From: Synechococcus sp. RS9909
Lineage (GTDB): Bacteria > Cyanobacteriota > Cyanobacteriia > PCC-6307 > Cyanobiaceae
DNA: 24,000 nucleotides
Direction: 5' to 3'
Assembly: GCF_014279595.1 (NCBI RefSeq)
Contig: NZ_CP047943.1
Span: 1,772,422 to 1,796,421 of the forward strand
Positions 1,531 through 14,188 of this stretch are shown here, one piece after another; position 1 is the first letter of the stretch, and every line of letters starts with the position of its first letter. The notes beneath the pieces were generated by a model. That model saw only the letters and a program-made list of their open reading frames with translations, did not search any database and was not told where the DNA came from. The position numbers and the translations under genes were made by a program.

Positions 1531-1945
1531 GCGCGAACGCCTCCACACCGGCACGAGCGACCGCTGCATCCACATCCGGCGTCATGCCGGACACTCCGAT
1601 CGCCCCCACCAGCGCTTGATCGCAGCGCAGCACCAGCCCACCGGCCATCAGGGCACAGGGCTGGTGCATCACCCCCTGCAAGGAGAGCAGCGCCACCCGC
1701 CCGCCGGCGATCGCCTGCTCGGCTGCAGCGCTGTCAGCACCCGTCAGGGCGGCGGTGCGCGCCTTGGCCATGGCCGTTTCCACACTGGCAGGCGAGGCGC
1801 CATCGCGACGGCGGAAACAGACCAACTGGCCCGCCCCATCCACCACCGCAATCGAGACCCGAGCCGCAGCCTGCTCGGCGGCGGCAAAGGCTGACGCCAG
1901 CACAGCGTCCGCATCGGCGAGATCCATCCAGAGGCGCTGATGCAT
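1505..1945 (-). CDS. GlcG/HbpS-like (DUF336) putative heme-binding protein
   Basis: 146 aa from the internal ATG: MHQRLWMDLADADAVLASAFAAAEQAAARVSIAVVDGAGQLVCFRRRDGASPASVETAMAKARTAA...GGLVLRCDQALVGAIGVSG. The layout is typical of the GlcG family. The start lies 4 nt after the upstream stop; the MDL start at 1927 is an alternative. Confidence 0.65.
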   Translation of the reverse strand: MHQRLWMDLADADAVLASAFAAAEQAAARVSIAVVDGAGQLVCFRRRDGASPASVETAMAKARTAALTGADSAAAEQAIAGGRVALLSLQGVMHQPCALMAGGLVLRCDQALVGAIGVSGMTPDVDAAVARAGVEAFALRARGCSS

Positions 1946-1949
1946 CAGC

Positions 1950-2210
1950 TCAGCTCCACTGAATCGCCATTGTCCAGAGGTGACCCTCCAGCTCCACGCC
2001 GGCGGCCAGAGCCTCGAGGGATTCCGCCGGCAAGCGGAGGGTGGCTTCAGCCTGATGCACGAGGATGTCGACACCCGTGAAATGGAAGCCCATCGCCTCA
2101 CCCTGGGCGGCGATGTCATTGAGACAGGTGGCGGTGTGAAAGCGCTCCAGAAGCGCCGGATCGGCTTTCACGGTGCGGAGGAAGGCCTCCAGTTGGGGAT
2201 TGCTGGTCAT
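1950..2210 (-). CDS. Nif11-like leader peptide domain protein (86 aa), candidate RiPP-type precursor
   Basis: MTSNPQLEAFLRTVKADPALLERFHTATCLNDIAAQGEAMGFHFTGVDI...LPAESLEALAAG|VELEGHLWTMAIQWS. It aligns by eye to the Nif11/prochlorosin leader pattern (QLKAF..KV.AD..LQE.L....AI.AI.AKEAGF.I...DL....LSDEELE.VAGG). ATG start verified. Confidence 0.65.
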   Translation of the reverse strand: MTSNPQLEAFLRTVKADPALLERFHTATCLNDIAAQGEAMGFHFTGVDILVHQAEATLRLPAESLEALAAGVELEGHLWTMAIQWS

Positions 2211-2226
2211 GGCAAAGGATGGCGAT

Positions 2227-2622
2227 TCAGTCTTTGATGGCGATGCAGGAGATTTCGATCCGGGCTCCCACCACCAGCTTGCTGATGCCGATCACGGCAC
2301 GGGAGCAGTAGTTGTCGGCATTGGGGAAGAACTCCTGCCACACCGCATCCATCTCTTCAATTTCATCGATGTTGGTCATGTACACCACCGCCTGCCCCAC
2401 ATCGCGATAGGTGCATCCGGCCGCTTCCAGCACACCGAACACATTCTTCAAGCATTGGCGCGTGTGCTCGGCCGTGCCTCCCGCCACGGTCTGATTCGTG
2501 ACCGGATCCACAGGCATCTGGCCGGACACAAACACAAACTGACCGATGCGATACCCCTGGCTGTAGCTGGCAACCGGTTGGTTGGCATGCTCTGTGCGAA
2601 TCGGATGGCGCTCAAGCGGCAT
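2227..2622 (-). CDS. ridA: RidA/YjgF/TdcF family reactive-intermediate (enamine/imine) deaminase
   Basis: 131 aa from the internal ATG: MPLERHPIRTEHANQPVASYSQGYRIGQFVFVSGQMPVDP...AEHTRQCLKNVFGVLEAAG...VVYMTNIDE...SRAVIGISKLVVGARIEISCIAIKD. This is a typical family signature. Confidence 0.85.
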   Translation of the reverse strand: MPLERHPIRTEHANQPVASYSQGYRIGQFVFVSGQMPVDPVTNQTVAGGTAEHTRQCLKNVFGVLEAAGCTYRDVGQAVVYMTNIDEIEEMDAVWQEFFPNADNYCSRAVIGISKLVVGARIEISCIAIKD

Positions 2623-2660
2623 GACGCTGATGCGTGCTGGCGATCCCTTGATAGCGGCGG

Positions 2661-3608
2661 TCAGGGCATGGCGGGGTGTTGAACGCCACGGGTGTTGAGG
2701 TGAATGGCGTACACCGCATCCCAGCTGCAAAGGAACAAACGGTTGCCGAACTCACCACCGAAACAGAGATTGCCCACCAGTTTCGGGGTGAGAATCTTGC
2801 CGAGCAGGCTGCCATCGGCGGCGATGCAGTGCACGCCATCCCCGGCGCTGCTCCAGAGATGGCCCTGCTCATCCACCCGAATGCCGTCGGCATTGCCCGG
2901 GGCGACGCGATGAAAACTGCGACCGTTGGCCAGGGTCCGGCCGCCATCGCGCAGATCGAACACCCGGATCTGTCGATCGGGGTCGGGGTCATCGGGGGCA
3001 CCGGTGTCAGCGACATACAGCAGCGACTCATCCGGCGAGAACGCCAGACCATTGGGGCCTTGCACCTCCTCCAGCGTGGTCATCGCCTGCAGGGAGCCAT
3101 CGGCGGGATCAAAGCGATACACGGATGGAGCCTGCCAGGAGGCACGGCGCCCACCCTCGTAGTCGTTCACCAGACCGTAGAGGGGATCGCTGAACCAGAT
3201 CGTGCCATCACTCTTCACCACCACATCGTTGGGCGTGTTGAGGGGTTGGCCGGCATGGGAATCCACCAGAGTCACCACGCGCCCGTTGTGCTCCGTGCGC
3301 AACAGGGCGCGATGGCCATGGCTGCAGGTGAGCAAGCGCCCTTGCCGATCCCGGGTCTGACCGTTGGGGAAACCGGCACGGTGGCGGTACACCGTGAGGC
3401 CCAGCGCGTCATCCCAAGCGAGGATCCGATCGTTGGGGATGTCGGACACCAGCAGCCGCTGCTGATCACCGAACCACACCGGGCCCTCCAGCCAACGACA
3501 GCCATCGAACAGGCGCTCCAGCTGGGCGTTGAACAACACCAGCTGCTGAAAGCGGGGATCGACAATTTCGAACCGTGTCTCCACGAACTGACTGCAAGGC
3601 ACGCTCAT
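2661..3608 (-). CDS. SMP-30/gluconolactonase/LRE-like beta-propeller hydrolase
   Basis: 315 aa from the ATG at 3608 (MSVPCSQFVETRFEIVD...). Motifs: LEGPVWF, SDIPNDRI, FPNGQT, PNDVVVKSDGTIWFSDP, GPNGLAFSPDESLLYVADT, ADGIRVDEQGHLW. The longer start at 3662 would overlap the upstream gene. Confidence 0.8.
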   Translation of the reverse strand: MSVPCSQFVETRFEIVDPRFQQLVLFNAQLERLFDGCRWLEGPVWFGDQQRLLVSDIPNDRILAWDDALGLTVYRHRAGFPNGQTRDRQGRLLTCSHGHRALLRTEHNGRVVTLVDSHAGQPLNTPNDVVVKSDGTIWFSDPLYGLVNDYEGGRRASWQAPSVYRFDPADGSLQAMTTLEEVQGPNGLAFSPDESLLYVADTGAPDDPDPDRQIRVFDLRDGGRTLANGRSFHRVAPGNADGIRVDEQGHLWSSAGDGVHCIAADGSLLGKILTPKLVGNLCFGGEFGNRLFLCSWDAVYAIHLNTRGVQHPAMP

Positions 3609-3618
3609 GGCCACCGCC

Positions 3619-4080
3619 TCAGTGAAAGGAGCCGGGTGGGAGGTTGCGCCAGGCCTGGTCATGGCGCTGGATGATCAGCTGCACGCAGGGCTCGTCCCCC
3701 ACCTGGGCGGAGAGATGGCCCTGCTTGCCGTCGGCAGTGGCCACGCAGCCCTGATCGCCGCCATAGGAATACTCCCCAGCGTGCATCACCACCCTGGTGC
3801 CATCCATGCTCTCCACCGACCAGGCCCCTCGCAATACGTAGATCCATTTCGGGACGTGGTTTTCATGCCAGTCGGCGGTCCAGCCCACCGGCAGATAGGT
3901 GACGAAGGCATGCCCGTTGTCGAACAACTCACGGGAGAACTGGGGCGAATCCCCCGGCCCGAGTTGGCCGAGCTGAAAGTCACTGATCGTGCACTGCTCC
4001 TGGCGACTGACCCCTTGCGCATCGGTCCAGAGATGCCAGTAACGCTCGGGCTGGGGAGCCTGGCTGAAGGGATCGCTCAT
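3619..4080 (-). CDS. Cupin-like small protein (hypothetical)
   Basis: 153 aa from the internal ATG (MSDPFSQAPQPERYWHLW...). WHENHVPKWIYVLRGAWSVESMDGTRVVMHAGE resembles a cupin beta-barrel core. High GC3. Packed 10 nt upstream of the lactonase gene. Confidence 0.5.
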   Translation of the reverse strand: MSDPFSQAPQPERYWHLWTDAQGVSRQEQCTISDFQLGQLGPGDSPQFSRELFDNGHAFVTYLPVGWTADWHENHVPKWIYVLRGAWSVESMDGTRVVMHAGEYSYGGDQGCVATADGKQGHLSAQVGDEPCVQLIIQRHDQAWRNLPPGSFH

Positions 4081-4109
4081 GCCATTGCAGATGCCTGCGC
4101 GCACCCTAT

Positions 4110-5213
4110 TCAGAACGTTCCCCTCTGCCCAGCCTTCTCCACACTCCAATCCAACACCTCGCCGGCATGGAACAGCCGTGGCGCTTCAGCAACGTCGAGA
4201 GGTTGCCTCATCGCCGCATCCAGCTCCAACCGCTTGGGCACGATTTGGGGCTGGCGCACCAGGGTGACCGTTTCGCTGTTCAGAGGCAGGCGGTAGAAGC
4301 GCGGTCCATGCTCACTGGCAAAGCCTTCCAGTCGATCCAACGCCCCTTCCCGATCAAAAATCGCGGCGTAGCTCTCCAGGGCGTGGGCCGCATTGAAGAT
4401 GCCCGCGCAGCCACAGCTGGTTTCCTTGCCGGAGCGGGCGTGGGGAGCGGAATCGGTGCCGAGGAAAAAGCAGGGTTCACCACCAGTGGCTGCCGCCACC
4501 AGCGCCCGGCGATGCCGCTCCCGCTTCAACACCGGCAGGCAGTAGGCATCGCTGCGCAAGCCACCGGCAAACATCGCATTGCGATTGAGATGGAGGTGGT
4601 GGGGGGTGATCGTCGCCGCCAGGGTGGTCTCACCGGCGCGGTGGCAGGCACGCACGTAGTGGGCGGCCTGCTCGGTGGTGATGTGCTCCAGCACCACGCG
4701 CAGGGCGGGGAAGCGTTGGCGCAACGGCACCAGATGCCGTTCGATGAACACCGCCTCCCGATCAAACACATCCACCTCGGGATCGGTGACCTCGCCATGG
4801 ATCAGCAGGGGCCGATCAATCGCCTGCAGCATCTCCAGCACGGGCGTGATCGCCTCCAGATCACTGACCCCCGCAGCGGAGTTGGTGGTGGCATTGGCGG
4901 GATAGAGCTTGACCGCCGTGAACACCCCGGTCTCAAATCCCTGCTTCAGATCCTGCGGATCGGTGGAATCGGTGAGATAGGCCGTCATCAGCGGCGTGAA
5001 CGACAGGCCGGGCGGCAAGGCCGCCAGGATCCGTTCGCGGTAGGCGACGGCAGCGGCCGCGGTCGTGACCGGAGGCCTGAGGTTGGGCATCACGATGGCC
5101 CTGGCGAAAAGGCGCGCTGTTGACGGCAGCACCGCCGCCAACATGGCCCCATCCCTCAGATGCAGATGCCAGTCGTCGGGGCGACGCAGGACGAGGCGAG
5201 AGGGAGAGGCCAT
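4110..5213 (-). CDS. pyrC: Dihydroorotase, homodimeric (E. coli) type
   Basis: MASPSRLVLRRPDDWHLHLRDG..., VMPNLRPPV, KLYPANATTNSAAGV (carboxylated-Lys region), HGEV, LEHITT, GTDSAPH. The start at 5213 lies 13 nt below the upstream stop. Confidence 0.9.
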   Translation of the reverse strand: MASPSRLVLRRPDDWHLHLRDGAMLAAVLPSTARLFARAIVMPNLRPPVTTAAAAVAYRERILAALPPGLSFTPLMTAYLTDSTDPQDLKQGFETGVFTAVKLYPANATTNSAAGVSDLEAITPVLEMLQAIDRPLLIHGEVTDPEVDVFDREAVFIERHLVPLRQRFPALRVVLEHITTEQAAHYVRACHRAGETTLAATITPHHLHLNRNAMFAGGLRSDAYCLPVLKRERHRRALVAAATGGEPCFFLGTDSAPHARSGKETSCGCAGIFNAAHALESYAAIFDREGALDRLEGFASEHGPRFYRLPLNSETVTLVRQPQIVPKRLELDAAMRQPLDVAEAPRLFHAGEVLDWSVEKAGQRGTF

Positions 5214-5226
5214 GGGCTGCAGACGA

Positions 5227-6876
5227 TCAGGCGGGAAGGCCTGCCACGGCGGAGCGCAGGGCCTCCAACCGATCTTCGCTGATCTGCTCCTGGGGGATCC
5301 GCTCAAGCAGCTTCAGCTTCTCCAGCCGGTTGCGGGCACCACCGGGCAGAAGCACAAGGTGCACCCGACGGCCCACCTCAAGCGCTTCCTTGATGGCATT
5401 CTCCAGGGCCAGGGAGGCTGTGACGCCGAGATGGGTGACCTCACTGAGGTCAAACACCACGGCATTGCAGTTGCTGATCGCGTTGTGCTCCCGGGCGATG
5501 GTCTTGGCCACGCCGAAGATCATCGGGCCGGCCAACTGGAACAGCAGCACCTTGCCGCCAGCCTGGTCAAGCAGTTGCTGCTCCTCGCCAGACAGCTCCA
5601 CGTCATCGTCAGCGGTGCTGATCGTTTTCACCCGTTTCGACTGCAGCGCGCTCATGCGATCGATGGTGAGCACGTTGGCCACGAACACGCCGATGCCCAC
5701 GGCCGCGATCAGATCCACCAGCACGGTGAGGGCGATGACGCCATAGGTGATCAAGGCGGCCTTCAACGACAGGTGATGGGCCCGGCGCAGGAAGTCCCAG
5801 TCGATGATGTCAATACCGACCTTGAGCGCGATCCCGGCCAGCACCGCCAGAGGAATGGTGGAGACCAGGGGCGCCGCCAGCAGGATCACGAGCATCAGAA
5901 TCACGGCCCGCACCACGCCGGACAGGGCGGAGCGTCCACCGGCCTGAATGTTCACCACCGTTCCCATGGTGGCGCCGGCACCGGGCAGTCCTCCGAACAA
6001 GCCGGAGGCGATGTTGGCCAGGCCCTGCCCCACCAGCTCCTTGTTGGAGTTGTGTTCTGTACGAGTGAGGCTGTCGGCCACCACCGATGTGAGCAGGGCA
6101 TCGATGCAGCCGAGCATGCCGAGCACGGCACCATCGATCACCATCAGCCGCCACTGATCGGCGGCGAAGATAGGCATGCGCAGGCTGGGAAATTCCGCCT
6201 GAAAGTCGGGAATCGTGCGCAGACCTGCGGCACTGAAGAGGGTGAGGGAGAGAAGCGTGCCGATCACCAGCGCCAGCAGCTGGGGCGGGCAGACTTTTTT
6301 CAGCCTGGCGGGGGTGAACCAGAGGATGGCCACGGTGATCAGGGCCAGGATCAATTCATAGGGCCGCACGCCCGAGAGCAACTGGGGCAGCTGCGACAGG
6401 GTGCCGATCACACCGCCTTTGGGGCTGGCCTGCCCCAGAAAGGGAGCCAGCTGCAGGATCACCAGGATGATGCCGATCCCCGACATGAAGCCGGAAATCA
6501 CCGTGTAGGGCATCTGGGTCACATACCGGCCCAGGCGGAACACCCCAAAGAGGATCTGGAACAGTCCGGCCAGGATCACCACGGTGAAAGCCATCGCCAG
6601 GGCCGTTTCCCTGTCGGGGGCCGTGGCGGTGAAACTGAGGATCACCGAGGTGAACACCACGGTCATGGGACCGGTGGGCTCGGAGATCAGGGTGGGGGTT
6701 CCACCGAACAAGGCAGCCACCAGGCCGATGATCACGGCAGCCCAGAGACCAGCGGCAGCACCGGCTCCGGAAGCCACACCGAAGGCCAGGGCCATCGGCA
6801 GGGCGATCACGGCGGCGGTGACGCCACCGAAGGCATCACCACGCAGGTTTCTAGTTCTGATGTGGTTAAAGAGCAC
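5227..6876 (-). CDS. bicA: SulP-family anion transporter with C-terminal STAS domain, BicA-like (probable Na+-dependent bicarbonate transporter)
   Basis: The N-terminus NLRGDAFGGVTAAVIALPMALAFGVASGAGAAAGLWAAVIIGLVAALFGGTPTLISEPTGPMTVV matches my memory of cyanobacterial BicA almost residue for residue. STAS tail: VLLFQLAGPMIFG...VVFDLSEVTHLG. GTG start (revcomp of cac 6874-6876). Confidence 0.8.
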   Translation of the reverse strand: MLFNHIRTRNLRGDAFGGVTAAVIALPMALAFGVASGAGAAAGLWAAVIIGLVAALFGGTPTLISEPTGPMTVVFTSVILSFTATAPDRETALAMAFTVVILAGLFQILFGVFRLGRYVTQMPYTVISGFMSGIGIILVILQLAPFLGQASPKGGVIGTLSQLPQLLSGVRPYELILALITVAILWFTPARLKKVCPPQLLALVIGTLLSLTLFSAAGLRTIPDFQAEFPSLRMPIFAADQWRLMVIDGAVLGMLGCIDALLTSVVADSLTRTEHNSNKELVGQGLANIASGLFGGLPGAGATMGTVVNIQAGGRSALSGVVRAVILMLVILLAAPLVSTIPLAVLAGIALKVGIDIIDWDFLRRAHHLSLKAALITYGVIALTVLVDLIAAVGIGVFVANVLTIDRMSALQSKRVKTISTADDDVELSGEEQQLLDQAGGKVLLFQLAGPMIFGVAKTIAREHNAISNCNAVVFDLSEVTHLGVTASLALENAIKEALEVGRRVHLVLLPGGARNRLEKLKLLERIPQEQISEDRLEALRSAVAGLPA

Positions 6877-6997: not shown

Positions 6998-8113
6998 ATG
7001 TCGCCGTTCCTGATCTCCGTTCTTGACGTTGTGGTGGGGATCGGCCTGCTCTTCGGTGGTGGCGAGCTGTTTGTGCAGGGGGCCGTGAGTCTGGCCCTGA
7101 TCCTGGGCATTCCCCAGCTGGTGATCGGCCTCACCGTGGTGGCCCTCGGCACCAGCGCCCCGGAACTGTTCGTGAGCGTGGGCTCGGCGCTGGCTGGCTC
7201 CGCCGATCTGGCCGTGAGCAACGTGGTGGGCAGCAACATCTTCAATGTGATGGTGGTGCTGGGCAGCAGCGCCCTGGTCATGCCACTGCACGTGGAAAGT
7301 CGATTGGTGCGCCGCGATGTGCCCCTGTTGCTGGCGGTCTCGGCGGCCGTGTGGGGGATGGCATCGGCGGGTCGGGTCACCTGGCAGGCGGGCGTCGCCT
7401 TGCTGATCGCTCTGGTGATCAACACCCTCTGGGAGATCCAAACCGCCAAGCAGGAACCGGAGGGGATCGAGGAGGCCGAGCCGGAGGTGGATGCGACAAG
7501 CGCCAACCGCGGCTGGGCTGGCTCCCTGATCCGCCTGGCGATCGGCATCGTGCTGCTTGGCTTCGGTTCCAATGTTCTGGTGAGGGGAGCGAGCGCAGCA
7601 GCGGCCATGCTCGGCGTGAGTGAAGCGGTGATCGGCCTCACGATCGTGTCGGCGGGAACCTCGATGCCGGAACTGATCACCTCCCTGATGGCGGCGATGC
7701 GGGGGCGCACCGATCTGGCGATCGGCAACGTGGTGGGCAGCAATCTGCTCAACCAGTTGCTGGTGCTCAGCGGCTCCGCCCTCGCTTCAGGCGCCTATGG
7801 CCTGCACGTGGATCCGATCCTGATTCAGCGGGACCTGCCGGTGATGCTGCTCACCACCCTGGCCTGCATGCCCATTTTCTGGAGTGATGGCCGGATCACC
7901 AGGGTCGAGGGCGGCGTCCTGCTTGGTCTTTACGTATTTTATGTCATCGATCAGGTGCTGCCCCGCACCCTGCCCAGCTGGCAGGACGAGTTCCGCCTGG
8001 CCCTGCTCTGCCTGGTGCTGCCGGTCGTATTGGTGTTGATCAGCGTGCAGGTGATCAGCCACTGGCGCCAACTTCGCTACAGCCGCCGGCGGGGCGACGA
8101 CGACCTGGCGTGA
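6998..8113 (+). CDS. CaCA-family Na+/Ca2+ exchanger (YrbG/ecm27-like)
   Basis: Two alpha-repeats: GLTVVALGTSAPELFVS...SNVVGSNIFNV and GLTIVSAGTSMPELITS...GNVVGSNLLN, with about 10 TM segments. ATG at 6998 verified. Confidence 0.85.
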   Translation: MSPFLISVLDVVVGIGLLFGGGELFVQGAVSLALILGIPQLVIGLTVVALGTSAPELFVSVGSALAGSADLAVSNVVGSNIFNVMVVLGSSALVMPLHVESRLVRRDVPLLLAVSAAVWGMASAGRVTWQAGVALLIALVINTLWEIQTAKQEPEGIEEAEPEVDATSANRGWAGSLIRLAIGIVLLGFGSNVLVRGASAAAAMLGVSEAVIGLTIVSAGTSMPELITSLMAAMRGRTDLAIGNVVGSNLLNQLLVLSGSALASGAYGLHVDPILIQRDLPVMLLTTLACMPIFWSDGRITRVEGGVLLGLYVFYVIDQVLPRTLPSWQDEFRLALLCLVLPVVLVLISVQVISHWRQLRYSRRRGDDDLA

Positions 8114-8157
8114 TCGACAGCCTCGCGTGATCGACAGCCTGGCGTGATCGACAGCAC
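8107..8157. repeat. Three tandem 17-bp direct repeats (core GCGTGATCGACAGC)
   Basis: ggcgtgatcgacagcct / cgcgtgatcgacagcct / ggcgtgatcgacagcac at 8107-8123, 8124-8140 and 8141-8157. The first copy contains the exchanger stop codon (TGA 8111-8113). Confidence 0.85.
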
Positions 8158-8261
8158 AGGGGAGCAGTCGGCATGGGCACACCCACATTTGCAATCCGAC
8201 AAGAGGGGATGACTCCTGGGGCAAAGCTGACCATCCTTGAGAGGCCAAGTGCGGCTTGCCG

Positions 8262-8762
8262 ATGCTGGAGCTGCTGCCTCCCCTTAACGACAAGAATCTT
8301 CCCTGGCTCGATGTGATCCACCCGATCGTGGTTCATTTCGTGATCGCGATGGCTCTGATCACGGTCGTCTTCGACTTCCTGGGCGTGCTGACCAAACGGC
8401 GCAACCTGTTTGAAGTCAGCTTCTGGAATCTGGTGGTGGCCACGGTGGCCATCTTCGTGGCGATCATCTTCGGGCAGATCGAAGCCGGGCTCGCCAACCC
8501 CTATGGCGCATCCCGCGACATCCTCAATTACCACAGCACCCTCGGCTGGTCCTTGGCCGGCGTGCTCGGCCTGCTGACCGGCTGGCGCTATGTGGTGCGG
8601 CAGAAAGACCCCACCAGCCTGCCTTCAGGCTTCCTGGTGATTGATGCGGTTCTGGCGGTGCTGGTGTTCTGCCAGGTCTATCTGGGCGACAAGCTGGTGT
8701 GGGTCTATGGGCTGCACACCGTGCCTGTGGTGGAAGCGGTGCGTAGCGGGGCACTCTCATGA
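8262..8762 (+). CDS. DUF2231-like integral membrane protein (4 TM, conserved His)
   Basis: ATG at 8262 (the track ORF begins at TTG 8256). IHPIVVHFVIAMALITVVFDFLG TM1 motif, four predicted TM segments. The stop overlaps the next start (ATGA 8759-8762). Confidence 0.7.
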   Translation: MLELLPPLNDKNLPWLDVIHPIVVHFVIAMALITVVFDFLGVLTKRRNLFEVSFWNLVVATVAIFVAIIFGQIEAGLANPYGASRDILNYHSTLGWSLAGVLGLLTGWRYVVRQKDPTSLPSGFLVIDAVLAVLVFCQVYLGDKLVWVYGLHTVPVVEAVRSGALS

Positions 8763-9394
8763 CCACCGTTTCGATGGATCTCCTGATCGAGATTGCGTCG
8801 CCGATCAATGACATCGTCGACCAACTCGGGGCCAACGATCTCCCCTATGCCATCCCCCTGCACCCCAACCTGGTGCACTTCACGATCGGCTTGTTCGCCA
8901 TCGGCATCGCCTTCGACTTCGCTGGCGCCTTCTATCCCCTCGAGAAGCGGGTGTTTCGGTTTCTGGCGCTGCCGGTGACCCGCACCGGCTTCCACGACGT
9001 GGGCTGGTACAACGTGCTCGCCTGCGCCGTGATCACCTTCTTCACGGTGGCTGCGGGGTTCTACGAAATGCTCCTGGCGGTGCCGCTGCCGGGGATCCGC
9101 AGTGTGATCGGCCAGAACGCGATCGACACCATGCTCTGGCATGCGATCGGCGGCGTTGCCCTGCTCCTGATCATCGTCGCCATGACGATCTGGCGGGGCT
9201 ATCAACGCTTTGTGTGGCGCAAGGACCTCGGCCGTCAGGTTACCTGGCTGTATCTGGGCTGCGGAGCGCTGATCCTGGTGATCATGGGCGTTCACGGCAG
9301 CCTCGGCGCCTGGCTTGCCAGCGAATTCGGCGTGCACATCACAGCGGATCAACTCCTCGCAGCCGGAGCCGATCTCCAAGAGGTTCTGCCATGA
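8759..9394 (+). CDS. DUF2231-like integral membrane protein, paralog of the preceding gene
   Basis: LHPNLVHFTIGLFAIGIAFDFAG TM1 motif and the same TM layout as 8262..8762. ATGA overlaps at both ends (8759-8762 and 9391-9394). Confidence 0.7.
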   Translation: MTTVSMDLLIEIASPINDIVDQLGANDLPYAIPLHPNLVHFTIGLFAIGIAFDFAGAFYPLEKRVFRFLALPVTRTGFHDVGWYNVLACAVITFFTVAAGFYEMLLAVPLPGIRSVIGQNAIDTMLWHAIGGVALLLIIVAMTIWRGYQRFVWRKDLGRQVTWLYLGCGALILVIMGVHGSLGAWLASEFGVHITADQLLAAGADLQEVLP

Positions 9395-10338
9395 CATCGA
9401 CAACCCCCAAAGGCAAGAGCGGTTGGCCGATCCGCCTCATCGCCGTCATCCTCCTGGCCACGGCCAGCGATGCCCTGCTGAGCTATCAGGTCTCGCAATG
9501 GGCCTATGGATGGCTGCCGGTGCCGGCTTCCACCGCAGCTCCCTATGTCGATGATCTCTTCAGCCTTGAAGTGGGAATCGGCGCCTTCATCTTCTTCGGT
9601 TGCACCGGTTTCATTCTTTGGTCGGTGCTGTTCAATCGGGCCGAGAAATACGACGAAAGCGATGGCCTGCCGATCGAAGGCAACAACAAACTGGAGGTCA
9701 CCTGGACGGTGATTCCTTTCATCATCGTGATGATTCTGGCCTATCAGGCCATCCACGTGAGTGAAACCCTCTCAGCCCTCGGCCCCAAGGTGAAATACGA
9801 CGTGGAAGGGGGCCTGAGCCCAGACACGGCCATTGTGACGGGAGTGCGGGATGACATTGGCCCCATCGATGTGATCGCAAGGCAGTGGAGCTGGGAGTTC
9901 ATCTATCCCAACGGCGTGCACAGCTCAGAACTCCATCTCCCCCTCGATCAGCGGGCCAATTTCCGCATGAGCAGCGAGGATGTGATCCATGGTTTCTTTG
10001 TGCCCGCCTTCCGCCTGAAGCAGGACATCGTTCCCGGCAGCGTGATTTCCTACAGCATCACACCCACCCGAGAAGGGCGTTATCGCCTTCGGGATTCCCA
10101 GTTCAGCGGTGCTTATTTCTCCCAGAATCAAACCGATGTGGTGGTGGAGAGCGAAGATATGTTCAACGCCTGGTTGAAACAAAGTGCTGCCAATCCCCTG
10201 GTTCCCGGATTGAGCCCGGGAACGGCCCTCTACAACGAGCGCCTCGCCAAGGGCAATAAGGGCTGGGCCACGGTGCCACCGGCACCGCCTCCGATGGTGA
10301 ATGATCCCGGCAATCCCGACGCTCCTCACGACGCCTGA
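9391..10338 (+). CDS. ctaC: Heme-copper oxidase subunit II lacking the CuA site (ARTO/CtaCII type)
   Basis: 315 aa from the ATG at 9391. Two N-terminal TM segments plus a cupredoxin domain (DVIHGFFVPAFRLKQDIVPG). Where CuA oxidases read CAELCGxxHxxM, this protein reads RDSQFSGAYFSQN. Confidence 0.85.
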   Translation: MTSTTPKGKSGWPIRLIAVILLATASDALLSYQVSQWAYGWLPVPASTAAPYVDDLFSLEVGIGAFIFFGCTGFILWSVLFNRAEKYDESDGLPIEGNNKLEVTWTVIPFIIVMILAYQAIHVSETLSALGPKVKYDVEGGLSPDTAIVTGVRDDIGPIDVIARQWSWEFIYPNGVHSSELHLPLDQRANFRMSSEDVIHGFFVPAFRLKQDIVPGSVISYSITPTREGRYRLRDSQFSGAYFSQNQTDVVVESEDMFNAWLKQSAANPLVPGLSPGTALYNERLAKGNKGWATVPPAPPPMVNDPGNPDAPHDA

Positions 10339-10343
10339 CCCCG

Positions 10344-12032
10344 ATGACGACCACCAAGTACGACCCGAGAGTTCTCAAGGCGCCCCATCCGGTGCCCGGT
10401 GCGCCCGACAACTGGAAGCGGTTCTTCACCTTCAACACCGACGCCAAGGTGATCGGCATCCAGTACATGGGCCTGTCCCTGTTCTTCCTGCTGGTGGGAG
10501 GACTGCTGGCCATGGTGATGCGCGGTGAACTGATCACACCGCCATCGGATCTGGTGGATCCCACCGTTTACAACGGTCTTTACACCATGCATGGAACAGT
10601 GATGCTGTTCCTGTTTCTGTTCCCGATTCTCAACGGCTTCAACAACCTGCTGATCCCCACCATGATCGGCGCCCCCGACATGGCCTTCCCGAAAGTGAAC
10701 GCCGCCGCCTTCTGGCTGGTTCCGGTGTTCTCGGTGGTGCTGCTCTCCAGCTTTTTCGTGCCAGGAGGTCCGGCCTCAGCCGGTTGGTGGTCCTATCCAC
10801 CGGTGAGCATCCAGAACCCGCTCGGCCACTTCCTCAACGGTGAATTTCTTTGGATTCTCGCCGTGGCCCTCTCGGGGATCTCTTCGATCTTGGGCGCGCT
10901 GAATTTCGTGACCACAATCATTCGCATGCGGGCCCCTGGCATGGGCTTTTTCCGGATGCCCGTGTTCGTCTGGACCGCCTGGGCAGCCCAGACCCTGCAG
11001 TTGGTGGGCCTGCCCGCCCTGACCGGTGGGGCGATCATGCTGCTCTTTGACCTGAGCTTCGGCACCAGCTTTTTCCGGCCCGAAGGTGGCGGCGATCCGG
11101 TGCTCTATCAACACTTTTTCTGGTTCTATTCGCACCCGGCGGTGTATGTGATGGTGCTGCCGGTGTTCGGCATCTTCTCCGAGCTGATCACCGTGTATTC
11201 GCGCAAGCCTCTGTTTGGCTACAAGTTTGTGGCGATCGCCTCCTTCATCATCACCTTCCTGGGCTTGATCGTGTGGGTGCACCACATGTTCTATTCAGGT
11301 ACGCCCCAGTGGATGCGCAACATCTTCATCGTCACCACGATGCTGATCGCCGTGCCCACCGGCGTGAAGGTGTTCGCCTGGCTCGGCACGCTTTGGGGAG
11401 GAAAGATCCGACTCACCACGCCGATGCTGTTCGTGCTTGGTGGTGTGGTGAATTTCATTCTGGGTGGTGTTACTGGAATCATGCTCGGCACCGCACCGAT
11501 CGACATCCATGTGGGCAACACCTATTTTGTGGTGGCTCACTTCCACTACATCATCTTCAACACGATCGGCTTCGGAATCTTTGCCGGCATCTACCACTGG
11601 TTCCCCAAGTTCACCGGCCGCATGTATTACGAAGGCCTCGGCAAAATTCATTTTGTGCTCACCTTCATCGGTGCCACCCTCAACTGGCTGCCGATGCACT
11701 GGGCTGGCCTTTACGGCATGCCCCGTCGCGTTGCCTCCTACGACCCTGAATTCGCCATCTGGAACGTGATTGCCAGCATCGGCGCCTTCATGCTCGGCGT
11801 CGCTTCGATCCCCTTCATCCTCAACATCGTCAGCTCCTGGGCCCGCGGCGCCAAGGCCTCCGCCAACCCCTGGAACGCGATCGGCCTCGAATGGCTGCTT
11901 CCCTCACCGCCACCGGCTGAGAACTTCGAGGATGACGTTCCCACCGTGATCAGCGAGCCCTATGGCTATGGCCTGGGCAAGCCCCTCGTAAAGGACGAGG
12001 AGTATTACATCCGCCGTTCCATGGAGGCGTGA
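10344..12032 (+). CDS. ctaD: Heme-copper oxidase subunit I (A2 type)
   Basis: YTMHGTVMLF (heme a His), WFYSHPAVYVMVLP (CuB His, cross-link Tyr, YS motif), VWVHHMF (CuB His pair), VVAHFHYIIF (heme a3/a His). Confidence 0.95.
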   Translation: MTTTKYDPRVLKAPHPVPGAPDNWKRFFTFNTDAKVIGIQYMGLSLFFLLVGGLLAMVMRGELITPPSDLVDPTVYNGLYTMHGTVMLFLFLFPILNGFNNLLIPTMIGAPDMAFPKVNAAAFWLVPVFSVVLLSSFFVPGGPASAGWWSYPPVSIQNPLGHFLNGEFLWILAVALSGISSILGALNFVTTIIRMRAPGMGFFRMPVFVWTAWAAQTLQLVGLPALTGGAIMLLFDLSFGTSFFRPEGGGDPVLYQHFFWFYSHPAVYVMVLPVFGIFSELITVYSRKPLFGYKFVAIASFIITFLGLIVWVHHMFYSGTPQWMRNIFIVTTMLIAVPTGVKVFAWLGTLWGGKIRLTTPMLFVLGGVVNFILGGVTGIMLGTAPIDIHVGNTYFVVAHFHYIIFNTIGFGIFAGIYHWFPKFTGRMYYEGLGKIHFVLTFIGATLNWLPMHWAGLYGMPRRVASYDPEFAIWNVIASIGAFMLGVASIPFILNIVSSWARGAKASANPWNAIGLEWLLPSPPPAENFEDDVPTVISEPYGYGLGKPLVKDEEYYIRRSMEA

Positions 12033-12643
12033 AACCAATGACTTCAGCGAGCCAAGACCTCAACCTCAATCACGAGCCAGGCCACATCAAGCACGATGGC
12101 CACAACCTCACTGGCTTCATCATCTTTCTCTGCTCAGAGAGCATCATCTTTCTGGCTTTCTTCAGCGGCTTTGCCCTGCTAAAGCTCACCAGCCCCGAAT
12201 GGCTTCCGGAAGGGGTGGAAGGCTTGGAGACCAAGCTGCCCCTGATCAACACGATTGTGCTGGTGAGCTCCAGCTTTGTGGCCTACTTCGCAGAGCGTTA
12301 TCTCCACAAGGAAAACCTCTGGGGATTTCGGGCTCTCTGGCTGCTCACCATGGCGATGGGCACCTATTTCGTGTATGGGCAATACGTGGAATGGTCGGAG
12401 CTTCCCTTCAGTCTCTCCAATGGTGTGTTCGGGGGCACGTTCTATCTGCTCACCGGATTTCATGGCCTGCATGTGATCACGGGCATCCTCTTGATGGCCC
12501 TGATGCTGTTCCGTTCCTTCCGTCCCAACAATTACGCCAAGGGCGACATGGGGGTCACCTCCGTGAGCCTGTTCTGGCACTTTGTGGATGTGATCTGGAT
12601 CATTCTCTACATCCTGATCTACGTGTGGCAGCGCCACACCTGA
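12029..12643 (+). CDS. ctaE: Heme-copper oxidase subunit III
   Basis: FYLLTGFHGLHVITG and SLFWHFVDVIWIILY signatures. The GTG at 12029 overlaps the ctaD stop (GTGA); the ATG at 12038 is an alternative start. Confidence 0.9.
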   Translation: MKPMTSASQDLNLNHEPGHIKHDGHNLTGFIIFLCSESIIFLAFFSGFALLKLTSPEWLPEGVEGLETKLPLINTIVLVSSSFVAYFAERYLHKENLWGFRALWLLTMAMGTYFVYGQYVEWSELPFSLSNGVFGGTFYLLTGFHGLHVITGILLMALMLFRSFRPNNYAKGDMGVTSVSLFWHFVDVIWIILYILIYVWQRHT

Positions 12644-12667: not shown

Positions 12668-14188
12668 ATGATCATCGATGATTGCCACTACGACGTCATC
12701 ATCATCGGCAGCGGTGCCGGTGGTGGAACCCTGGCCGGTGCCCTGAGCCGCAAGGGGCACAAGGTGCTGCTGTTGGAGCGGGGCGGCGCCATGGCTCTGG
12801 AGGATCAGAACGTGGCCGATGTGGATCTGTTCAGGAAAGATCGCTACCACCCCAAAAATGAGCGCTGGTTCGGTCCTGACGGTGATCCCTTCGCTCCCCA
12901 GACCACCTATGCCCTGGGGGGCAACACCAAAATCTGGGGAGCTGCCCTGGAACGGATGCGCGAGAAAGATTTCGGCGAAATCCCACTCCAGGACGGCGTG
13001 TCACCAAGCTGGCCTTTCGATTACGCCAGCCTGGCGCCTTACTACGACGCCGCCGAAGCGCTCTATCAGGTGCATGGCCAAGCGGGTGTGGACCCCACGG
13101 AGCCGTCACGGTCGACACCTTTTCCCCACGCCCCGAAGCCGCTGCTTCCTTTCCTGGAACCATTGCGCGATGGCCTGCAGCGTCAGGGGTGTCAGCCCTA
13201 TGACCTCCCCCTGAGCTGGTCGACCGATCCCGAGGATCCTTCCGGCGACGCCCAGATTTTCGGCCTGAACCAGGCCGACCCCAACACGCTGGAGACGCGA
13301 GCCCTGGCGCGGGTGACCCGCCTGCACACCAGCCCCGATGGACGGGAGGTGAAAGGGGTGGAGGCCGAAGTGGCCGGGGACCTGTGGTTGTTCAGCGCTG
13401 ATCTGGTGGTGCTGGCCGCCGGCGCGATCAACAGCGCAGCCATCCTGCTGCGCTCCAGCTCCGATCGGCATCCACGCGGCCTGAGCAACGGCTCCGACCA
13501 GGTGGGCCGCAACCTGATGAATCTGCAGCTCACCTCAATCCTGCAGCTGGCGGCAGAGCCGAATAGCGGACGTTACGCCCGCTCTCTCGGCATCAACGAC
13601 TACTACTGGGGAGACAAGAACGTCAGCTTTCCGCTCGGTCATCTCCAGAGTGCCGGCGGCGTCTTGCAGGACGCCCTGTTTGCGGAGTCGCCGCCAGTGC
13701 TCTCCCTGGTGAGCAAGCTGATCCCCGATTTCGGTCTCGAACGACTCGCCTCCCGTTCGGTGGCCTGGTGGGCGATGACCGAAGTGCGACCCGATCCCCA
13801 CAACAAAGTGTGGCTTCACAACGACCAGATCAGGATCAACTACCTCCACAACAATCGAGAGGCTCACGATCGCCTGGTGTATCGCTGGATCGACACCCTC
13901 AAAGCGGTGGAGGCTGATCCGGTGACCCGGGTCGTGACCTCAGCGCCCACCCACCCGCGCGGCGAAGCTCCCCTGAGCGTGGTGGGTTATGCCTGCGGAA
14001 CCTGCCGGATGGGACAGGATGCGGCCGCCTCAGTGGTGGATGCCACCGGCAAGTGCCATGAACTCAACAACCTCTACCTGGCCGACGCCAGCGTGTTCCC
14101 CAGCTGCCCGAGCGTTGGCCCTGGTCTCACCGTGATTGCCCTGGCCCTCAGGCTCGCCGATCAGCTCGATCAGCGCCTTCAGGGCTGA
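12668..14188 (+). CDS. GMC-family FAD-dependent oxidoreductase
   Basis: N-terminal YDVIIIGSGAGGGTLAGALSRKGHKVLLLERGG (Rossmann FAD fold). C-terminal GTCRMG...NLYLADASVFPSCPSVGPGLTVIALALRLA (GMC C-terminal domain). Starts 24 nt after ctaE. Confidence 0.85.
   Translation: MIIDDCHYDVIIIGSGAGGGTLAGALSRKGHKVLLLERGGAMALEDQNVADVDLFRKDRYHPKNERWFGPDGDPFAPQTTYALGGNTKIWGAALERMREKDFGEIPLQDGVSPSWPFDYASLAPYYDAAEALYQVHGQAGVDPTEPSRSTPFPHAPKPLLPFLEPLRDGLQRQGCQPYDLPLSWSTDPEDPSGDAQIFGLNQADPNTLETRALARVTRLHTSPDGREVKGVEAEVAGDLWLFSADLVVLAAGAINSAAILLRSSSDRHPRGLSNGSDQVGRNLMNLQLTSILQLAAEPNSGRYARSLGINDYYWGDKNVSFPLGHLQSAGGVLQDALFAESPPVLSLVSKLIPDFGLERLASRSVAWWAMTEVRPDPHNKVWLHNDQIRINYLHNNREAHDRLVYRWIDTLKAVEADPVTRVVTSAPTHPRGEAPLSVVGYACGTCRMGQDAAASVVDATGKCHELNNLYLADASVFPSCPSVGPGLTVIALALRLADQLDQRLQG

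Follow-up and report, generated by a model that had tools for sequence, protein, structure and literature searches.

How electrons enter a heme-copper oxidase that carries neither of the known entry devices in its core subunits is the question raised by a gene cluster of Synechococcus sp. RS9909, a marine unicellular cyanobacterium without heterocysts. The cluster lies within a window of 24,000 nucleotides (NZ_CP047943.1, positions 1,772,422 to 1,796,421 of the forward strand; coordinates refer to this window unless a numbered locus, L, is named) and encodes the alternative respiratory terminal oxidase (ARTO); cyanobacteria have three main terminal oxidases, of which this is one. Subunits II, I and III of the oxidase are encoded by ctaC, ctaD and ctaE, and directly ahead of them lie two genes for small membrane proteins of the DUF2231 family, termed D1 and D2 in the following. 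D1 and D2 are paralogues that share four invariant histidines, and they accompany the CuA-less oxidase almost everywhere in the cyanobacterial loci sampled. We tentatively propose that the pair could provide the missing electron entry. Seven genes form a run on the plus strand, namely those of a Na/Ca exchanger, D1, D2, CtaC, CtaD, CtaE and a GMC-family FAD oxidoreductase, of which the following are needed here:

8262..8762, + strand: D1, DUF2231 protein of 166 amino acids counted from the ATG, four transmembrane helices; alternative TTG start at 8256
8759..9394, + strand: D2, DUF2231 paralogue of 211 amino acids (ATG at 8759) or 206 amino acids (ATG at 8774, Met6)
9391..10338, + strand: ctaCII, subunit II of the heme-copper oxidase, lacking the CuA ligands; start ATG overlapping with the stop codon of D2
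10344..12032, + strand: ctaDII, subunit I, with the six metal and haem histidines and the cross-link tyrosine kept, and a YSHPAV motif
12029..12643, + strand: ctaEII, subunit III; start codon overlapping with the stop codon of ctaD (12029-12032)
12668..14188, + strand: GMC-family FAD oxidoreductase without signal peptide, 25 nucleotides past ctaE
8319-8321, 8334-8336, 8532-8534 and 8715-8717, + strand: codons of D1 His20, His25, His91 and His152
8861-8863, 8876-8878, 9140-9142 and 9335-9337, + strand: codons of D2 His35, His40, His128 and His193

The Oxidase Core Lacks Both Known Electron Entry Devices

A preliminary description of this DNA had stated that subunit II lacks the CuA site and that the oxidase needs another route of electron entry, and both statements are borne out. 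The window CtaC contains a single cysteine, which is located in a transmembrane (TM) helix outside the CuA site, and it reads RLRDSQFSGAYFSQNQ where the CuA motif C-x-E-x-C-x3-H-x2-M is expected. This motif is found in none of 74 CtaC proteins, comprising that of the window and those of 73 loci described below. In subunit I the metal centers are retained: upon alignment of the window CtaD and three other ARTO CtaD sequences with Escherichia coli CyoB (36% identity to the window protein), residues H106, H284, Y288, H333, H334, H419 and H421 (CyoB numbering) are invariant in CyoB and in the four ARTO proteins. The N-terminal helix TM0 is deleted from all four ARTO sequences, and R71 of CyoB is replaced by V/I, D75 by L, H98 by V/L and Q101 by G/S/A, these four being the quinol-site residues of cytochrome bo3. 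Since subunit II has no CuA and subunit I has neither TM0 nor the quinol-site residues, neither known entry device is present in the three core subunits, which strengthens the case for another route. The window CtaD additionally reads YSHPAV where CyoB has GHPEV, so that the D-channel glutamate (E286 in CyoB) is an alanine; YSHPAV is the signature of A2-type heme-copper oxidases.

Cytochrome bo3 of E. coli (CyoABCD) and aa3-600 of Bacillus subtilis are likewise heme-copper oxidases with a subunit II that lacks CuA, and both oxidize quinol. Cytochrome bo3 differs, however, in that the quinol is bound in subunit I via TM0 together with the four residues named above, none of which ARTO subunit I possesses. 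Furthermore, ARTO is without a CyoD-like gene and has the D1/D2 pair instead.

D1 and D2 Are Paralogues with an Invariant Histidine Cluster

The earlier view of the two open reading frames (166 and 211 amino acids) as paralogues with four TM helices is confirmed by their coordinates, by BLASTP (25% identity, E 9e-11) and by the predicted helices. Against the hidden Markov model of Pfam family PF09990 (DUF2231; model length 139, gathering threshold 26.4 bits) D1 scores 127 bits (E 7e-37, model positions 4-138) and D2 scores 134.9 bits (E 2.5e-39, model positions 2-138), establishing the suspected family membership, and DUF2231 is the sole Pfam domain of either protein. D1 is identical to QNI79910.1, which is annotated as "uncharacterized conserved membrane protein (DUF2231)." That the family is without an assigned function also holds: the Pfam label reads merely "predicted membrane protein," NCBIfam has no model for D1 or D2, and DUF2231 appears in the searchable literature only as an incidental mention in one paper on another subject. 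A single-sequence search of 1.84 billion representatives returned 99 matches, mostly fragments from close relatives.

AlphaFold2 models computed with alignments show a confident four-helix bundle for both proteins, with a predicted local distance difference test (pLDDT) score of 85.7 for D1 (helices 19-44, 47-77, 85-115, and 122-149) and 78.5 for D2 (helices 34-57, 75-106, 121-152, and 163-190). Two features set D2 apart from D1: residues 59-68 form an additional amphipathic helix on the cytoplasmic side, and a loop on the outer side is longer. Across approximately 80 orthologues of each protein, lysine and arginine are strongly enriched in loops 1-2 and 3-4; for D1, the mean number of these residues is 1.85 in loop 1-2 and 3.79 in loop 3-4, compared with 0.06 at the N-terminus and 0.26 in loop 2-3. 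Because of this enrichment, both termini and loop 2-3 are assigned to the periplasmic or lumenal side. The start of TM1 bears two of the four histidines, the third follows seven to eight residues inside TM3, and the last comes immediately after TM4, which places the cluster, on this predicted topology, on the outer (periplasmic or lumenal) face, where CuA would sit.

The histidines were examined in 80 D1 and 82 D2 sequences, including those of the window, a lack of conservation in orthologues having been named beforehand as grounds for refuting the proposed role. His20, His25, His91 and His152 of D1, as well as His35, His40, His128 and His193 of D2, are conserved in 100% of the respective sequences, whereas the other D2 histidines are not (H79 2%, H179 77%). 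The suggestion that the two proteins carry the same histidines is correct: when 26 D1 and D2 sequences are aligned jointly, each of the four occupies a shared column; the pairwise BLASTP alignment sets the TM3 histidines a few residues out of register, and the family alignment brings them together. Further columns invariant in both paralogues are (D2 numbering) a Leu-Pro before TM1, D53, N85, G100, E103, W145, R150, R154, G183 and G191. Neither a methionine nor a cysteine is conserved in common between D1 and D2 in the orthologue alignments.

Comparison with distant DUF2231 proteins (22-32% identity, from Gemmatimonadota and other uncultured bacteria) leaves H35, H40, G100, H128, G132, W145, R146, G183 and G191 invariant. 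D1 and D2 thus carry the family-wide marks of DUF2231, namely H-P-x3-H at the start of TM1, the TM3 histidine, the glycines of TM2 and TM4, and W-R past TM3, while E103 and the fourth histidine are confined to the cyanobacterial clade that is linked to the oxidase. In both proteins H40 (TM1), G100 (TM2), H128 (TM3) and G183 (TM4) or their equivalents form one layer, seven to eight residues from the outer-side ends of the helices as delimited by AlphaFold2.

The D1/D2 Pair Is Linked to the CuA-Less Oxidase

A genome scan with the D2 alignment retrieved at least 577 relatives, and the linkage counts refer to the best 80 of these, all of which are from cyanobacteria and span many orders (Nostocales, Pseudanabaena, Leptolyngbya, Chroococcales, Spirulina and others). 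On every contig of sufficient length the order D1-D2-ctaC-ctaD-ctaE is kept, except in loci L028 and L068. All 73 adjacent full-length CtaC proteins are without the CuA cysteines and read D-S-x-[YF]-S-G-T-Y-F-A-x-M in the CuA region. The reverse holds as well: a scan of metagenome contigs with the CtaCII alignment gave 80 loci, all CuA-less, and in 73 of the 74 with enough upstream DNA both D1 and D2 are located directly upstream of ctaC. In the lone exception (L089) the 2.2 kb upstream of ctaC, up to the end of the contig, contain transposase-like open reading frames (214-1686). The co-occurrence of DUF2231 pairs with CuA-less oxidases, put forward earlier as a check, is therefore near-perfect in both directions. 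This genomic association is real, far beyond chance and near-obligate, and in part it was known already.

Scytonema sp. HK-05 contains three complete D1-D2-ctaC-ctaD-ctaE loci (L009, L016, and L066), one of them on a plasmid, indicating that the pair travels with the oxidase and that the five genes move or duplicate as a unit. In locus L001 a second, long-form pair (56-1550) is convergent to a canonical D1-D2-ctaCDE operon (1556-6176); its D2 bears a C-terminal extension of approximately 115 amino acids without a Pfam match, as do P0130, P0136 and P0145. An apparent D2-COX1 fusion (P0127) proved to be a 200-residue chimera of fragments and was treated as an assembly artefact rather than as a Rosetta-stone fusion. 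Similarly, sll0814 and sll0815 of Synechocystis, whose tags lie beside ctaCII, were considered as a D1/D2 pair and ruled out, sll0814 being described as a homologue of a Synechococcus PCC 7002 protein with a part in myxoxanthophyll synthesis.

Overlapping stop and start codons, the criterion applied for translational coupling, are clear at the D2/ctaC junction (ATGA at 9391, gccATGAca) and at ctaD/ctaE. Both ATGA overlaps of the preliminary description, at 8759 (ctcATGAcc) and at 9391, can be read from the sequence, but the start of D2 is ambiguous: Met1 is matched in 1% of orthologues and Met6 in 82%, and most members of the 90% cluster of D2 have 206 amino acids. The D1/D2 junction is thus either a 4-nucleotide ATGA overlap (8759) or an 11-nucleotide gap (8774). 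In Nostoc loci an ATGA overlap sits exactly at the Met6-equivalent start of D2, and independent gene calls in two Chroococcales genomes (L170 and L171) place the genes 0 or -1 nucleotides apart in the same order as in the window. On account of the Nostoc overlaps and the Chroococcales spacing, tight coupling is considered the rule. A promoter scan of the region upstream of the operon gave nothing above background.

The Pair in Anabaena and in Other Cyanobacteria

ARTO of Anabaena sp. PCC 7120 (Cox3/Qox) is encoded by alr2729-alr2730-coxB3-coxA3-coxC3, is expressed in heterocysts and needed for diazotrophic growth; it is regarded as a quinol oxidase, its subunit II being without CuA (PMC6616624). 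As in the window, two genes for small membrane proteins are followed by those of a CuA-less subunit II and of subunits I and III, and the genes are co-transcribed and co-regulated, an NtcA site being located upstream of the first (PMC6616624; PMC3898017; PMC7065334). NtcA binds upstream of alr2729, which is listed as the "cox3 operon" (PMC3898017), and transcriptome data (PMC7065334; PMC4390870) show alr2729 and alr2730, each a "putative membrane protein," declining along with cox3B and cox3A. The two Anabaena proteins are annotated just as putative or hypothetical membrane proteins. D1-D2 occupies the position of alr2729-alr2730 in all Nostocales loci examined, and judging from this synteny in relatives alr2729 and alr2730 are almost certainly the same pair. 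What was already known is thus the gene arrangement in Anabaena, without a function: the searchable literature assigns none to alr2729 or alr2730 and contains no analysis of their cofactor or family.

For the PCC 7002 locus tags and DUF2231, the searchable literature contained no functional study, and sll1485/sll1486 appeared in a single paper, as an incidental table entry. A0728 of PCC 7002, whose tag adjoins that of ctaCII (A0727), ranks among the proteins with the strongest labelling by lumen-targeted APEX2, and its listed Synechocystis homologue is sll1486 (PMC7880944). The latter lies two tags from ndbC (sll1484), which would echo an arrangement of Elainella described below. Should A0728 be D2, the labelling would support the exposure of D2 on the outer side by experiment, and a Synechocystis pair would be linked to NdbC; this serves as a lead only.

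A GMC Flavoprotein Gene and the Wider DUF2231 Family

The co-conservation of a GMC flavoprotein gene downstream of ctaE is new. Of 53 genome loci that could be evaluated, 41 have such a gene in sixth place in the cluster, on the same strand and often less than 100 nucleotides from ctaE, and 12 have no copy nearby; it is also seen in L170 (10372-11877) and L171 (10373-11878). The GMC protein of the window gives a weak match to GMC_oxred_N. In Elainella saxicola (L028, 6263-8931) an NDH-2-like Pyr_redox_2 flavoprotein comes after the D1-D2 pair.

For a wider view of the family, relatives of the distant member P0207 were located on contigs, and nine non-cyanobacterial places were inspected. At six of them, for example in Gemmatimonadota, the DUF2231 gene is clustered with Gluconate_2-dh3 and GMC oxidoreductase genes, often together with glycoside hydrolases (including L167, 6915-10635; L081; L082; L083; L166). 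Directly after the DUF2231 gene, five of these six (including L082, L083, L166, and L167) encode a polytopic membrane protein of approximately 270 amino acids, which has no Pfam match and contains a repeated histidine-bearing motif (GHYRRAF..YAP / ILHYRGAF..YAP). The gluconate 2-dehydrogenase type of enzyme, which consists of a flavoprotein, a small subunit and a membrane cytochrome c, resembles these clusters in sharing the Gluconate_2-dh3 and GMC genes. No cytochrome c subunit is encoded in the Gluconate_2-dh3/GMC/DUF2231 clusters, however, and the DUF2231 protein, mostly with the 270-residue polytopic protein, takes its genomic place. The window cluster, too, ends in a GMC flavoprotein, but the cyanobacterial cluster is without the small subunit.

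The other three places show the order YHS, DUF2231, DUF4396 (L168, 665-3579; L084, 2436-5721; L085, 2702-7063), and L168 shows a fusion of the DUF4396 domain with a multicopper oxidase, after which an RND efflux system is encoded. Moreover, some DUF2231 relatives, members of this clade among them, carry a C-terminal heavy-metal-binding domain (PF19335) or histidine-rich tails, predicted to face the outer side. What these contexts have in common is a membrane module beside enzymes that donate electrons to the quinone pool or oxygen, or withdraw them from there.

A Possible Role of D1 and D2 in Electron Entry

The best-supported explanation, though a tentative one, is that D1 and D2 are accessory subunits of ARTO that would hold a redox cofactor at the outer side, probably a single bis-His haem b in each protein, and would oxidize plastoquinol or relay electrons. 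They would be made together with the three core subunits and most likely form a heterodimeric accessory module. In four-helix membrane cytochromes such as cytochrome b, bis-His haem sites have their histidines on every second helix and glycines on the intervening ones. Because the His (TM1)/Gly (TM2)/His (TM3)/Gly (TM4) layer of D1 and D2 resembles this pattern, we infer that it may hold one bis-His haem b per protein. The more superficial, clade-specific set, comprising the first TM1 histidine, the glutamate at the end of TM2 and the histidine past TM4, is of a kind suited to quinol and could bind and deprotonate plastoquinol; these outer residues could equally contact the oxidase or a metal. 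Electrons would then travel from quinol, or from a partner flavoprotein via quinone, to the outer-side cofactor and on to the low-spin haem of subunit I, a route that would replace both the missing CuA and the missing bo3-type quinol site.

NarI, FdnI, cytochrome b/b6 and cytochrome b561, the b-type cytochromes that anchor respiratory enzymes, are likewise small helical bundles in the membrane in which helices with invariant histidines alternate with helices bearing glycines, and they connect quinone or quinol with a partner enzyme. These differ from D1 and D2 in holding two haems across the membrane, with histidine pairs 10-14 residues apart, whereas the D1 and D2 histidines are one-sided and the TM1 pair is five residues apart. 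A transmembrane di-haem cytochrome b with two haems per protein was accordingly rejected for D1 and D2, leaving a single bis-His haem per protein, via the second TM1 histidine and the TM3 histidine, as the most that is plausible.

Several observations weigh against a haem-bearing accessory subunit. Searches of all PDB chains with D1 and D2 by phmmer and by profile gave no meaningful match, and no PDB entry was found by Foldseek at E <= 0.001 with the AlphaFold2 model of either protein (best E 0.6 and 0.19 for the two models); the top matches (E 0.2-2) are generic bundles such as chemoreceptor ligand-binding domains, the four-helix part of oxidase subunit III, CcmF, cytochrome b6 and STEAP1. 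A Pfam scan of D1 and D2 likewise gave no match to cytochrome b families. The D1-D2 pairs of L028 and L068 have no oxidase within approximately 7 kb, and ARTO of Synechocystis may work without an adjacent pair, since sll0814 beside its ctaCII is not a DUF2231 protein. Finally, the metal-binding domains and histidine-rich tails of some distant relatives point to metal handling rather than to electron transfer.

Alternative Explanations

The copper contexts of DUF2231 relatives keep a role in metal handling alive. D1 and D2 might serve as ARTO assembly or cofactor-delivery factors, the outer histidine cluster binding copper (for CuB) or haem transiently and passing it to subunit I, and operons of heme-copper oxidases do often include assembly genes. 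The clade found beside YHS proteins, DUF4396 with its multicopper oxidase fusion and the RND metal-efflux system would fit such a function, as would the PF19335 domains and outer-side histidine-rich tails of some relatives. D1 and D2 themselves, however, have neither a heavy-metal-binding domain nor a histidine-rich tail, and no gene for a YHS or heavy-metal-binding domain is present in the window cluster. The lack of a methionine or cysteine common to both paralogues also counts against copper delivery, to which the GMC and NDH-2 contexts are moreover ill-suited, and the strict pairing, together with a location in front of the structural genes and in close junction with them in almost every locus, suggests stoichiometric subunits, so that we consider a delivery function rather unlikely. 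A purely structural or regulatory role without any cofactor, in the manner of the small extra subunits of oxidases, with the histidines serving packing, proton handling or lipid contacts, would agree with the absence of detectable similarity to cofactor-binding folds in the PDB and Foldseek searches. Yet three histidines and their flanking glycines are invariant across clades at approximately 25% identity, which is unusual for purely structural residues and renders this explanation improbable.

The flavoprotein genes allow a further explanation that is compatible with the accessory-subunit proposal, namely that the pair is the membrane partner of the GMC oxidoreductase (or of NDH-2) and would feed electrons from the oxidation of some substrate either into the quinone pool or straight to ARTO, in the latter case as a self-contained chain from substrate to oxygen. 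The GMC gene that follows ctaE in most loci, the Gluconate_2-dh3 and GMC genes beside DUF2231 outside the cyanobacteria, mostly with the polytopic protein next to it, and the Elainella pair that precedes an NDH-2-like flavoprotein without an oxidase all argue for it, and the conserved Asp, Asn, Trp-Arg and Arg residues on the cytoplasmic side of D1 and D2 could form a docking or quinone site. By contrast, the pair accompanies the oxidase almost everywhere sampled, whereas 12 of the 53 evaluable operons have no GMC gene nearby, and the window GMC protein is without a signal peptide and therefore probably cytoplasmic, while the histidine cluster is on the outer side; as the main role of the pair, a partnership of this kind seems to us rather unlikely as well. 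A broader and more speculative version of the accessory-subunit proposal, on which we would place less reliance than on that proposal itself, regards DUF2231 proteins as widespread single-haem (or otherwise His-ligated) quinone-interacting modules with varied redox partners, of which the cyanobacterial D1/D2 heterodimer would be the plastoquinol-oxidizing entry of a five-subunit ARTO, a novel answer to the loss of CuA, possibly wired to the GMC protein.

Flanking Features

Upstream of D1, the following features are found:

6998-8113, + strand: Na/Ca exchanger gene, upstream of D1
8104..8155, no strand assigned: tandem repeat of 17 bp x 3.1, unit CCTGGCGTGATCGACAG, which spans the stop codon of the Na/Ca exchanger gene and runs into the region upstream of D1

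The CCTGGCGTGATCGACAG repeat could be a regulatory site or a product of slippage. A cation antiporter gene directly upstream of the cluster is seen in the window, on the same strand, and also in the two Chroococcales genomes, where a Na/H exchanger gene is divergent (L170, 4112-5698; L171, 4115-5698). This neighborhood may be a coincidence.

Implications

As a near-obligate, phylum-wide pair of histidine-bearing proteins encoded at the head of the operon, D1 and D2 are a testable candidate for the missing electron-entry part of ARTO, and the finding turns the question of its electron donor into straightforward experiments. If the proposal is true, DUF2231 would gain a function and the composition of ARTO would need revision. 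The association of the family with GMC flavoproteins and multicopper oxidases would then speak for an electron-transfer module that is reusable and present in many bacteria.

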